Shown here in pieces: positions 32,901 to 38,900 of a stretch of 64,000 bases of DNA (the first letter of the stretch is position 1; each line of letters starts with the position of its first letter). The DNA lies in the NCBI RefSeq assembly GCF_006345805.1, contig NC_043006.1:35960001-36024000 (forward strand), given 5' to 3'. The position numbers and the translations under genes are program-made. The notes beneath the pieces are model-generated. The model did not search any database. It had not been told where the DNA came from and worked only from the letters and a program-made list of their open reading frames with translations. Source of the stretch: Octopus sinensis. Lineage: Eukaryota.

Positions 32901-35900
32901 TATCTTCTCTATTCACAATTTACATGGACCATGTATAAATCTCCCGATTTATTGTATCTTGAAAGCATGAATCTATTAGTAACTCTTTTGTAAATTGTAT
33001 ATGTATGTATGTTTGTGTGTGTGTGTGTATGGTATTTGTAATTTTTGCTTGTGTCTGTTTTGCAAGACACATTATGTAAAATGCTTTTTATGTAGATGTC
33101 GTTGTAACTCGAGGGTTCATTGTACCAATAGCAAACACATATACTCCTTCTGTCTAATTTTATAGTATTGGTCTCAAATTTTGGCACAAGGCCAGCAATT
33201 TTAAGTGAGGGACTAAGTCGATTAGATCGATCCCAATGTTCAAATAGTACTTGCTTTATCGACCTCGAAAGGATGAAAGACAAAGTAAGTCTACCACGGT
33301 GGCGCTTGAACTCAGAACCGAAAAACGGAAGAAATGACGCTAAGCATTTCGTCCGACGTGCTAACAATTCTGCCTGATCACCACCCAGTTTTATGTACAT
33401 AATATTGATTTAATCAACTAATTGGCACTTTCAGCGATTAATTAATCGCTTGATTAATCTTCCAGTCAATCCACTCAGCTATTTCGTCGCCGTTAACGCC
33501 TTCATCAATGACATGCTCTCATTACTCCGTATCTGTCTCGTTGTTTCTAAGCCTTTGTTAATGCATCATGGGATTGTTTATCAACCATTTTGTGCATATG
33601 GACTCCTTCGATTCCTATTTTACTCAAATGGACCCTCATAGACATTCGATAGTTTAAAAGTTCCTATCATATTTTTATAATTAAGCACTATTAAGAATTG
33701 ATTCTTTCATTCTTTTATTTGCTTCAGTCATTTGACTGCGGCCATGTTGGAGCACTGCCTAATAGTCGGACAAATCGATCCCAAGACTTATTCTTTGTAC
33801 GCCTAGTACTTATTCAATCGGTCTCTTTTGCCAAGCTGCTAAGTAAATACACCAACATCGGTTGCCAAGCGATGGTGGGAGTGACAAACGCAGAAACAGA
33901 TACATATGTTTATATATATATATATATATATATATATATATATATATATATTATATATATATATATATATATATATACACGATGGGCTTCTTTCAGTTTC
34001 CATCCACTAAATCTACTCACAAGGCTTTGGCTATAGTAGAAGAGACTTGCCCAAGATTCCACGCAGTGGAACTGAACCTGAAACCATGTAGTGTCTAAGC
34101 AAGCTACTTCCCACACAGCCACTCGTATAAAAAATTGTTCAATTATTATATGTAATATAGAAGTATAACTAATTTAGTGCAGATAAAATTTAACAGCAAA
34201 ATCTTATTTCGTCTCCCGAGGGTCTTGTAAACCCCGGGCGAGAGCCACTGTTTTTTGCATAGTGTGTGTGTGCGTACATGTGATAGCAACTGTTTGGGAA
34301 GGGCATGTGTGATTTGTTGGGATTTTTTCATGGTTAGTCTTTGTGATCAGACTGTGTGCATGCGTGTGTGTATGTATGTATATATGTATGTATGTATGTA
34401 TGTATGCATATATGTATGTATGTATGTATGTATGTATGTATGTATGTATGTATGTATGTATGTATGTAGATGGTCTCATCAATAAGTATTCGGACTGTTG
34501 CTATAGTAACGAAGCTAAAGTACGAAGGGTAAAGCCGCTTGGCATAGATTGACCTTGAATATTGTTATGCATGTGCACTAAGTTTTAAAGGTCTAGCTTA
34601 CTTCTGCCGTTTAAAGTAGTGCTTGGAAGGAAGGTGTGTAGCGTGTGATCGTCGCATTGACAATGACAGAGAAAGCTGAGCAGAGAATCTGCATCAAAGG
34701 CCCTGTTGAAGGATATGGGAAGGCATGACACCATTCCCAGTGGAGACGCATTGAAAGACCATCACAGTCTGGAGAACTTGGTTTTCATGATGTCTAGGAC
34801 ACCTCTTACAGCCATTGCAGTGTTCACCGAGCATTGCGCAGCCGTCACGATGTGAGAGTTCTGATACTCGGTTCGAATCATCGTGATACTGAGAAATATT
34901 TTTCCTAGTTGGGTAACTTTTTCTCAATACAGCTTTAAACTTTATGCTCTCCAACGCCGTTGACTGTTCATCAATACATCAAGCTATTCATAAAAAAAAG
35001 AAGCACAAATAGTCGTCAAATTTAGCTCGAACACACTGTACATATAAATGCATATATACAAATATATATATATATATGCATATGCAATGCATATACTTAT
35101 ATGTATACATTAATATTGTCATATACTCATAGTTACATATATATATATATATATATATATATATATTAATCAATATAGGGTGGCAAAAAATTTCGCAGAA
35201 TTTTTTTGCCACCAGCGGCCTAGTGGGAAAAAAAGTAAATAGTCATACACCATTTATAAATTCAACAGCAAAATTTAGGAACGGCCATAATAGGCCATTC
35301 AACCCACTAGAAATAACAGCCAAGGCTTCAACCGCAAAACAATATTAATTCCGTAAACCAGGAGAAAATTTAAAAAACATTTACCCTGTAATACTTTATA
35401 CGATGCATCGTTTCGTCTATTCTTTAATGGTAAATCAACATGATTAAATTAAATCAAGCTAATCTTCCATAGGCCAGTAGATTCATCAGTAAAGTCAGCC
35501 AGATCGGGGCAGATATTTTCACGAGGCAGTTCCACTACTGCCTCGGCAATATCTGACCTAAAATTTTCAAATTTTCAAATGGCGCGAGTGCGATGATTTG
35601 AAAATTTTGCTGTTGAATTTATAAATGGTCTATGACTATTTACTTTTTTTCCCACTAGGCCGCTGGTGGCAAAAAAATTCTGCGAAATTTTTTGCCACCC
35701 TATATTGATTAATTATGAATTTTCTGTTTGATTCCGTAATGGAATCGGCAGCTTATATTTGCTGCCGATAAATTTGGCACGAGTGCGATGATTTGAAAAT
35801 TTTAGGTCAGATATTGCCGAGGCAGTAGTGGAACTGCCTCGTGAAAATATCTGCCCCGATCTGGCTGACTTTACTGATGAATCTACTGGCCTATGGAAGA

Positions 35901-38900
35901 TTAGCTTGATTTAATTTAATCATGTTGATTTACCATTAAAGAATAGACGAAACGATGCATCGTATAAAGTATTACAGGGTAAATGTTTTTTAAATTTTCT
36001 CCTGGTTTACGGAATTAATATTGTTTTGCGGTTGAAGCCTTGGCTGTTATTTCTAGTGGGTTGAATGGCCTATTATGGCCGTTCCTAAATTTTGCTGCTA
36101 TATATATATATATATATATATATATATACATATATATATACATATATATGTATATGTATGTATGTATACACACACGTACTGTATGCATACATGAAATGTA
36201 GAGATGTATACATACATGTGCATATAGAGTTAAATATTTAAAAATTCGCATTACATATATGTGTGTGTGTGTGTGTGTGTGTGTGTGTGTGTGTGCGCGC
36301 GTATGTGTGTGTGCTCATGTATTTTCTATACTTCATATACTTGTGTTAAATGAATAAGTAGAAGAAATCGGCTAATTAAACAACTTCGTCAATTTATTCA
36401 ATGTTAAAAGCTAAACGTTCTTGAATTTCTAGAATGTAATTCGATATTTATATAAATATTTACACACTTGTTTATTTAATGATAGGCACAAGAGATCAAA
36501 CACGTCAGTTGTTTCCAAAATAGCAAGAAGGTGTCAGTGTTGAAGGGAAACACTTGTTCAAATAGTTATGTCATAACGAAAAGACCAAAGAAATTCTAGG
36601 AGGTATATTTACATATGCCAATTAAAAATATATGTTTATGTATGTGTATATATGTATAGCGATAGATAGATAGATAGATAGATAGATAGATAGATAGATA
36701 GATAGATAGATAGATAGATAGATAGATAGATAGATAGATAGATAGATACATTCATACATACATACACACATACATACATACATACATACATACATACATA
36801 CATACATACATACATACATACATACATACATATATGGTGGCTGCCACCTCGTTATCGAGTGTGGCCATTGCACGAAGCTTAATCAATGTTGTTATCGTGC
36901 AATGCCTGTGCAAGGAGATTTTTTTTAAAGTGAGGAAAGGCTGTACACTGAGTCAATCCCACTCACTAATCAACAGCAGCCATAATCCGAAAAGAAGGAC
37001 AAGTCAACATCATCGGTAACCACTGAGCCGCAGGTTTTATGTCGGAGTTATCCCAGTTACCTGAGTTACCTTCTCCTAGAAGGATGCCCTAACAAAGGCT
37101 AGGAGGCCTTCACTCCCAATGGTTTAGCCGGGTGATCGGGTATCCAGTCCGATACATACATACATACATACATACATACATACATACATACATACATACA
37201 TACATACATACATACATATCCAATCCATGACTGGAACTGTTAAAGTCTGTAAAACTTTCCTAAAGTTTCTCATTTAGATATATATGAGCATGTCTAGATA
37301 TGTAACTACATGCATGGTAATACATACATAAAAATACAAATCTGCACATACATACATACAGACATACATACATACATAAAAACAAAAATACCCTTTTGTT
37401 GATGCTGAAATTCCAATAAAGGACTCTTAGATCTCTGTTAGCAAGACATCTTGAAATATACTGAATAATGACATGCTTACATACATACTTACATACATAC
37501 ACATATTCATACATAACACTGAATATATCACCCAAATCATAAGCAGTTGTCCGTAAATGTCATCGCGTTCTTAATAACACATCTTAACACATCTCATCTA
37601 CCGATGAGATGTGTTCAGATGTGTTATTAAGAAGGACGTAGGCTGCGGTAACCGTTCTGTAAAATGAATATGCAAAGTAATAGTCATCAGAAAAGCTGCT
37701 TCCAATGCTAATGGCTACTTTATAAACAACCTGATGCTTTTCGCGACTCGCGGAGTATTTAGTCAGTTTTAAATTATAAACGTTCGACAGATTTTCGGTC
37801 TGATGTTCTCCGGCGGTAGAGTGCCTGTTGCTGAAGATACTCTGTTAACGTTGAAATTACGTGGTATGATTGTCCCAACCGCTTTTAACGAAATTTCGTC
37901 AAACGATATGCGTGTATATGTGTGTGCGTGAGTCACTCAGTGTCTGTGTCTGTATGTGTGTCTGTGTGTATGTGTGTGTGTCTGTGTGTGCGTATATATA
38001 TGTGTGTGTGCGTGAAAAGGTTGAATTATATTTCGTCCTTTTATTTTAGAGGGTTCCAACAATATATAGTTATTAGTGAAAGAAACAGATCAATGGGCCG
38101 ATTGAGTAAACCTATGAATAACGAACCTACAATGGCTACAGGAAACAGTCGTAAGTCAAATTTACTACAATAAAGAAAAATCTGTAATGACCAACATTTA
38201 TACTTTGTCTTATCAATCTATCTATCGATCTGTCTATATATCTATCTGTGTATATAGATAGATAGATAGATAGATAGATAGATAGATAGATAGATAGATA
38301 GATAGATAGATAGATAGATAGATAGATAGATAGATAGATAGATAGATAGATAGATAGATATAGATATAGATATATAGATAGATAGATAGATAGATAGATA
38401 GATAGATAGATAGATAGATAGATATACATACATATTTTCATGCATGCATATTCAGCGAGAGATACAGAGAGATGGGGCCATCCAACTGTTTGTAACTCAA
38501 TGTAACAAAATGTAAACTGGAAAACAACAATTTACAAACATTTCGTTGCAGTATCCAGTAGGGTTAAGGTGTAAATTACGGTTATTTGTTGACTTTCGGT
38601 GCTAAGCTAAACTCCTCTCATATATGTAAGAATTTAAATAAACTTCCGTGAGAGGAATAATCTGTTGTATTACTCAAGAGGATTAGCCTTTCAAATACTT
38701 AACGCTTTGAAACATAAACACTGCATTTATTTCTACTAATTACACATGACAATACTAAATTTATTTGAAACATCTGCCAAAGTTTTTCATCTCATCTCTA
38801 TTTTTTATGCTTATCTTTTTAGTTAACTTGATACTAACACAATACAAGCTTTATATTTACCTTGCATTTGATGTGTTTTCTTGATGCGGTTCTCCACATG

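Follow-up and report, generated by a model that had tools for sequence, protein, structure and literature searches.

The question raised by this locus is how a short unit without coding capacity came to be inserted in the genome of Octopus sinensis as two inverted copies of itself. The locus lies in a stretch of 64,000 nucleotides (nt) of contig NC_043006.1 (assembly GCF_006345805.1, positions 35,960,001 to 36,024,000, forward strand), referred to here in its full length as the window. The element consists of a 485-nt unit bearing a predicted hammerhead ribozyme and present as two arms set head to head; the minus arm runs from 35572 to 35165, the plus arm from 35602 to 36097. The best overall explanation, which we consider likely, is a retrozyme of the kind without long terminal repeats (non-LTR retrozyme), lacking an open reading frame (ORF) and mobilised in trans by the reverse transcriptase (RT)-endonuclease of a Penelope-like element (PLE). 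The observations on which this is based are the size of the family, its tandem arrays, two fixed 3' ends, the pairing of one end of each kind, microhomology at the joins and covariation in the ribozyme stems.

Architecture of the element

The two arms are 99.8% identical over 408 nt, with the minus arm reading block B' of the unit directly into block A'. The period of 485 nt is marked by an 11-mer found at 35602 and again at 36087. The guanine plus cytosine (GC) content of the full unit is 36%, and the longest ATG-initiated ORF of the element encodes 27 amino acids (aa); on three circularised units the longest ORFs were 34-65 aa, and GC content was 36-38%. The plus arm folds with a z-score of -6.1, and (TA)n lies on either flank of the twin-arm insertion. 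Between the arms are a 7-nt filler (35573-35579) and a 29-nt duplicated piece, the latter joined to the plus arm through a 7-nt microhomology (AAATTTT). A sequence-only reading of the window had proposed the inverted and permuted arms, the 485-nt period, the lack of a convincing ORF, the abundance of hairpins and the (TA)n setting, all of which are borne out. The microhomology of 8 nt that it gave for the central jump has to be corrected to 7 nt, with the filler beside it, and its single hammerhead holds for each unit, the insertion as a whole carrying two, one in each arm.

Two fixed 3' ends and the pairing of arms

Ends were mapped in 45 clusters identified by the site 2 end motif and in 64 further loci, the window locus included; the latter were drawn from the site 1 end motif of the window subfamily, for which 100 of 132 matches were listed. 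The points at which the unit is permuted had been expected to vary, and this is true of the 5' ends. The 3' ends are fixed, falling at unit positions 5-14 (site 1) or 108-115 (site 2), approximately 100 nt apart, and a TA run follows 90 of 95 site 1 ends and 79 of 89 site 2 ends. Of 78 head-to-head pairs, 72 combine a site 1 end with a site 2 end, one has two site 1 ends, none has two site 2 ends and five have one end elsewhere. No tail-to-tail arrangement was found among the mapped loci. Even where only a single arm is present (33 loci), a loose pattern detected a short stub in 14, and the stub carries the complementary site in all 13 for which the end of the main arm could be classified, two of these calls being doubtful. 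The same one-of-each pairing was found for four of five pairs in 11 extra listed loci, for 8/9 pairs in a second, 479-nt hammerhead family, and for 8/8, 3/3 and 15/18 pairs in autonomous Hydra-like elements. An inverted truncated copy, a tail at one end only and flanking (TA)n together make up the inverted pseudo-LTR (pLTR) plus tail signature of Penelope, here present on a non-LTR retrozyme.

The lengths of the two arms of a pair are correlated (rho 0.38, p 0.0014), and the majority of arm joins show an overlap or gap of a few bases. In 47 pairs overlapping by at least 80 nt, paired arms are 98.8% alike (median), compared with 88.9% for a typical other copy. Paired arms therefore appear to belong to the same subfamily, and their origin from a single RNA molecule is a candidate explanation. 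A few arms (L304:1857-2422 and L079) have their end at unit 449 or 476 instead, at short TG-ending motifs resembling site 1, which suggests that these are cryptic start sites.

Family size, tandem arrays and diversity

A 23-mer and a 22-mer marker of the unit gave 4,871 and 2,916 exact matches in the genome, respectively, with none for the reversed controls. A DNA search with the unit returned 1,729 candidates, and the nearest relatives, among the best 40 scored, are 98% identical. By hand count the first 100 matches per motif formed 45 and approximately 37 clusters, from which at least roughly 1,300-1,800 loci can be extrapolated. These thousands of matches supply the further copies and head-to-tail tandems that had been anticipated, and the supposed youth of the element agrees with the near identity of the window arms and of these relatives.

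Tandem arrays reach 11.6 units. Of 182 arms, 62 are longer than one unit and 23 longer than two, the longest being 5,647 nt. Natural cut-to-cut monomers (73 in 33 loci) measure 482-500 nt; when one monomer per locus was compared across these 33 loci, pairwise identity ranged from 81 to 100%, with 13 clusters at 97%. Units within an array are nearly uniform, with 196 private against 13 shared variant sites (18 of 19 arrays analysed), and in the same arrays almost no variants are shared in register between the two arms. The family thus displays the sequence characteristics of a non-LTR retrozyme, namely a short, dispersed, head-to-tail tandem unit in many copies that is non-coding and has a GC content below 50%. 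The literature searched contains no description of this 485-nt family or of any cephalopod retrozyme, Repbase/Dfam and the supplements of papers being outside this search.

Assembled contigs of runs X1, X2, X4 and X11, which we guess to be RNA, cover the unit. The single-copy flank of locus L272 is uncovered in X1, X2 and X11 and covered in X17, and a repeat resembling a short interspersed element reaches a much greater depth than the unit in each of these four runs. None of these coverage data were used as evidence. One unit haplotype is dominant in the X2 contigs (depth ~3,300-3,800), and contigs of a second organism (run X11) also carry the family, at 90-95%.

The hammerhead ribozyme

The fold is a type I hammerhead, one per unit, with a CUGANGA/GAAA/NUH core and stems I-III, and is predicted to self-cleave. 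Stem II is 68 nt long and stem III is palindromic. Among 151 copies found with a fuzzy pattern, CTGANGA is intact in 149 and GAAA in 149; N7 alone varies, and does so by subfamily. In 16 diverse copies, 98.2% of 542 cells of predicted stem pairs are paired (91-100% for the stems) and 9 of 34 pairs are changed on both sides, these being spread over stems I, II and III. None of 500 shuffles reached this count of paired cells, a result that is not a probability since the window copy served to draw the structure and the 16 are related to one another. RNAalifold, applied to 14 monomers, arrives independently at a stem I that is closed on the 5' end. The closing pair of stem II is A-U in 10 of the 16 copies and unpaired in six, in place of G10.1-C11.1.

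The match to the Rfam hammerhead that had been expected did not materialise, either at the gathering threshold or at E<=10, probably because of the long stem II, and a descriptor scan requiring a perfect stem I also did not catch the ribozyme. Long-stem-II hammerheads present in thousands of copies thus escape model-based ribozyme searches. Rfam microRNA matches within the element were rejected as hairpin or TA artefacts. The 5' ends of arms fall at the predicted cut in 12 of 163 cases against 5.7 expected (p 0.009), in an interval set by the cut position yet picked after a cluster had been noticed in the first sample. A further excess, at unit 50-68 (11 against 5.7, p 0.02), was singled out post hoc. 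At L138:3511-3545 and L145:934 other families show hammerhead-like motifs, one inverted pair having the same A-C closing mismatch as the window subfamily.

Candidate Penelope-like partners

Two kinds of PLE were considered as the source of the enzyme. Neptune-like families, named for their CX2-5CxxC linker (as in PMC8557442) and not from a tree, have frames of 775-781 aa; of these, Neptune-like A combines intact ORFs of 781 aa with a tail of its own, 40 nt in length. A Neptune-like family at L064:674-4374, L062 and L061 has an ORF1 lying upstream, a degenerate core resembling a hammerhead and a tail of 40 nt. The hammerhead repeat beside Neptune-like A in L064 was entertained as its pLTR and rejected, being a separate family of ~479 nt. 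This second ORF-less tandem family (L114:1480-2460 and L105-L132; 3,955 candidates, tail ~80 nt) follows the two-end rule and has no significant sequence match to the 485-nt unit.

The Hydra-like group is large; its members have frames of 899 aa and are arranged as hammerhead, site 1, a ~143-nt tail, site 2 and ATG. Its representative L390 (2700-5396) has an 899-aa open frame with DKT, a hammerhead ~600 nt past the stop and a TA flank, and GIY-YIG is carried by 13-50% of the members of its look-alikes. It thus shows the features given for the Hydra clade in PMC8557442 that concern the C-terminal endonuclease, DKT, a canonical hammerhead and insertion in (TA)n. The RWK motif and CxCX5C linker are absent by pattern match from the rows of this group that were seen, and no tree was built, hence the label Hydra-like in place of Hydra. 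No PDB match was obtained for the Hydra-like protein. L390 and L411-L439 form a very young group (intact 899-aa frames, long-stem-II hammerhead, 143-nt tail), the RT search having yielded 9,439 candidates.

A direct link between unit and PLE is given by hybrid loci. Of 60 free 5' ends, 23 have no TA run, and three of these are joined head to head to PLE arms. In L217 a unit arm is joined to a Hydra-like arm (site 2 with site 1) by microhomology and with no TA run at the join; both arms are young, the Hydra-like arm being 98-99% identical to 39 other copies and the unit arm 97.7% to its nearest. L079 likewise joins a unit arm to a Hydra-like arm with no TA run at the join, and L357 joins a unit arm to a Neptune-like arm. 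In L127, a site 2 arm of the 479-nt family meets a Hydra-like site 1 arm, again with no TA run. A search with the L217 hybrid gave no further hybrid among 40 scored places, and no unit arm was present in 104 Hydra-like records. We lean towards a Hydra-like element as the partner.

Proposed mechanism

That the unit is a PLE-mobilised retrozyme is held with high confidence; the non-autonomous ribozyme retroelement of retrozyme or Penelope kind first suspected is upheld by its copy number and tandem arrays, by covariation within the hammerhead and by ends of the Penelope type, and the element is neither single-copy, nor bounded by ends of the kind seen in a miniature inverted-repeat transposable element (MITE), nor the pLTR of an autonomous element that was seen. 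Tandem transcripts would cleave themselves at the hammerhead, possibly as dimers because stem III is palindromic, and the monomers may be ligated to circles. Within a (TA)n tract a PLE RT-endonuclease, acting as a two-subunit enzyme, would nick each of the two strands and prime two cDNAs, site 1 serving as the start of one and site 2 as that of the other; these would extend for 10 nt to 5.6 kb, stop and be joined. Such twin priming on both target strands is probable. A published precedent is the anole PLE, which in vitro cuts and extends both strands, has two internal start sites bounding the tail and is predicted to be dimeric (PMC11167929). More tentatively, PLE integration in general may be a programmed twin priming by an asymmetric RT-endonuclease dimer able to load two different RNAs, the unit then being a circular RNA parasite of a Hydra-like element, whose two sites it would mimic in structure without shared sequence.

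A number of observations weigh against this reading. For the anole PLE no difference in start site between strands was seen, and its ribozyme is dispensable in vitro (PMC11167929). The window subfamily has an A-C mismatch at the closing pair of stem II, which may slow the predicted ribozyme, and only one of nine predicted Xenopus retrozyme dimers was cleaved when tested (bioRxiv 10.64898/2026.07.22.740005). When compared with the best other locus, an arm is closer to its sister arm in 19 pairs, tied in 9 and less close in 19. No nucleotide homology was found between the unit and autonomous PLEs in 81 PLE records, which are a small, best-scoring part of 5,029 and 9,439 candidates. The hybrids are three among ~163 places and could be deletions between neighbouring insertions; the unit arm of L079 ends at unit 476, which is neither site, and L357 pairs site 2 with site 2. 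Finally, among the 62 arms that exceed one unit, 6 end at the cut having already passed it.

Alternative explanations

The nature of the template is the point at which the evidence is most evenly divided. The claim of a circular or tandem template stands as an either/or, with the choice between the two left even, and we give even chances to a circle having been the template of most multi-unit arms. The near uniformity of units in arrays of up to 12, with almost no in-register variants common to both arms, fits one monomer copied repeatedly and speaks against a linear template, a tandem transcript that the ribozyme has cleaved in part, with circles absent or incidental and arrays growing by read-through or unequal crossing over. 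Young homogeneous masters could, however, also yield uniform arrays. Stops at the cut after read-through (pooled p 0.009) are better accommodated by part-cleaved linear multimers than by a monomer circle, arms ending at whole laps, looked for as a sign of circles, are not in excess, and unprocessed RNA is the main substrate in vitro (PMC11167929). The linear template accordingly has a substantial chance of being correct, if somewhat short of even.

A second alternative is that the hybrids arose by later deletion between neighbouring insertions, the true partner being Neptune-like or another PLE. PLEs do cluster in TA tracts, PLE fragments adjoin several unit loci, and one hybrid involves Neptune-like A, with its intact ORFs and own tail. 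Against this, the two arms of L217 are both young, with site 2 and site 1 ends and a microhomology join, L127 repeats the pattern for the second family, and the long stem II and long tail of the unit resemble the Hydra-like design. We regard deletion as rather unlikely.

It is improbable that the unit is the pLTR region of an unseen autonomous PLE, the loci being its truncated or internally deleted copies. Xenopus retrozymes do match PLE pLTRs in 21 cases among 57 families (bioRxiv 10.64898/2026.07.22.740005), and of the thousands of PLE candidates the best alone were scored. In the mapped loci, however, site 2 leads into the next unit or TA and never into an ORF, none contains an ORF of RT plus GIY-YIG as in an autonomous PLE with endonuclease (EN+ PLE), and none of the 60 free 5' ends continues in sense into a fetched PLE, to which the lack of homology noted above may be added.

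Fold-back or self-priming on one (antisense) template, with the tail made by endonuclease trimming, was proposed for rotifer Penelopes (PMC3846280), and junctions here are often at palindromes or hairpins. One arm could be contained in the other in 38 of 69 simple pairs (three complex pairs being left out). This explanation is disfavoured because in the other 31 neither arm lies inside the other, some with both arms below 100 nt; nor can fold-back produce hybrids of unrelated families, and we give it little credence. The large inverted repeat, TA flanks and hairpins might also suggest a MITE, or a satellite, with terminal inverted repeats at its ends. The end mapping refutes this: in place of a fixed length and identical terminal repeats, the copies have two unlike ends, sizes anywhere between ~100 nt and 5.6 kb, tandems in their interior and a 5' truncation that varies. 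The ribozyme stems, moreover, covary.

Features of the element and its surroundings

The features of the insertion are collected in Table 1. A Pfam Chitin_synth_2 exon (E 3.9e-10) lies on one side of the element (window 29954-30514, minus strand) and a 668-aa open frame, with no Pfam or PDB match, on the other (38857-40863, minus strand); the element is probably located in an intron of a chitin-synthase-like gene. Look-alike exons at 642-1199 (plus) and 11457-11996 (minus) gave no Pfam match. A repeat of transposon-like appearance at 34470-35030, possibly mariner-like, recurs at L064:6620 onward.

Table 1. Coordinates of the twin-arm insertion within the window.
Feature	Position	Strand	Remarks
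Left (TA)n target tract	35135..35164	.	Sequence; TA run after 79/89 site 2 ends
Site-2-ending arm, unit 190 through junction to 112, 5'-truncated	35165..35572	-	99.8% to plus arm
Tail of ~101 nt from site 1 to site 2, at the end of the minus arm only	35165..35265	-	
Hairpin immediately upstream of site 2	35179..35213	-	
Type I hammerhead (predicted), minus-arm copy	35393..35495	-	
Central junction: 7-nt filler and 29-nt piece (unit 174-202), 7-nt microhomology to plus arm	35573..35608	+	
One full 485-nt unit	35602..36086	+	36% GC, no ORF
Site-1-ending arm, 1.02 units	35602..36097	+	
Internal copy of site 2 hairpin and site 2 end motif	35665..35713	+	22-mer here: 2,916 exact genome matches
Type I hammerhead (predicted), plus-arm copy	35868..35970	+	Stem I 35868-73/35965-70; core 35874-80 (CTGATGA); stem II 35881-948 (68 nt, A-C mismatch at closing pair); GAAA 35949-52; palindromic stem III; GUA triplet ending at 35964, predicted cut after 35964
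Site 1 hairpin (36063-84) and end motif	36063..36097	+	23-mer here: 4,871 exact genome matches
Right (TA)n target tract	36099..36128	.	Sequence; TA run after 90/95 site 1 ends

Comparison with known systems

With other non-LTR retrozymes (PMC7229834; bioRxiv 10.64898/2026.07.22.740005) the octopus family shares a short, low-GC tandem unit with one type I hammerhead, the lack of an ORF, thousands of copies and coexistence with PLEs. Its 485 nt exceed the 150-450 bp given in PMC7229834 and lie within the range of 51-972 in bioRxiv 10.64898/2026.07.22.740005. It differs in the 68-nt stem II without G10.1-C11.1, in the lack of pLTR homology in the PLEs compared, and in its insertion as head-to-head arms with two fixed ends, the word 'inverted' having no occurrence in the text of PMC7229834. 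Circles are documented for retrozymes of coral, mussel and axolotl (PMC7229834) and may also be formed by the octopus unit. It has been argued in a 2026 preprint that non-LTR retrozymes derive from PLE pLTRs (bioRxiv 10.64898/2026.07.22.740005). Chlamys elements such as MRC1 are likewise non-autonomous PLEs with multicopy head-to-tail insertions; unlike the octopus unit, they have 3' ends that generally match an autonomous family, and they belong to a clade without canonical hammerheads (PMC8557442).

EN+ PLEs (PMC8557442, PMC3846280, PMC11167929) have in common with the unit an inverted 5'-truncated copy, partial tandems, a tail at one end, (TA)n targets and a hammerhead upstream of two start sites. 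The tail is ~100 nt in the octopus unit against 30-40 nt in the EN+ PLEs of these sources. Unlike EN+ PLEs, the unit has no RT or endonuclease, and its arms reach 11.6 units. Twin priming of L1 likewise yields a head-to-head inversion, through a second primer that the opposite target strand supplies; in the octopus insertions the second start lies at a fixed site, both arms can run to several units, and the two may belong to different families. In Schistosoma, pairs of hammerheads on opposite strands and 100-700 bp apart have been reported (PMC4209133), and 235 hammerheads were counted, with no further study, in the giant squid genome paper (PMC6962438).

The origin of inverted, tailed PLE insertions is called an open question in the papers cited here, and the mobilisation of animal retrozymes by PLEs has so far been argued from co-occurrence and from homology to pLTRs. 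The present family, being short, young and high in copy number, offers countable evidence on both, and the one-of-each rule, the independence of the arms and the hybrids name a mechanism and a candidate enzyme that can be tested in the published in vitro assay. The octopus unit is likely an element of a known kind, set apart from the systems above by an unusually clear record of what is probably the PLE mode of insertion.

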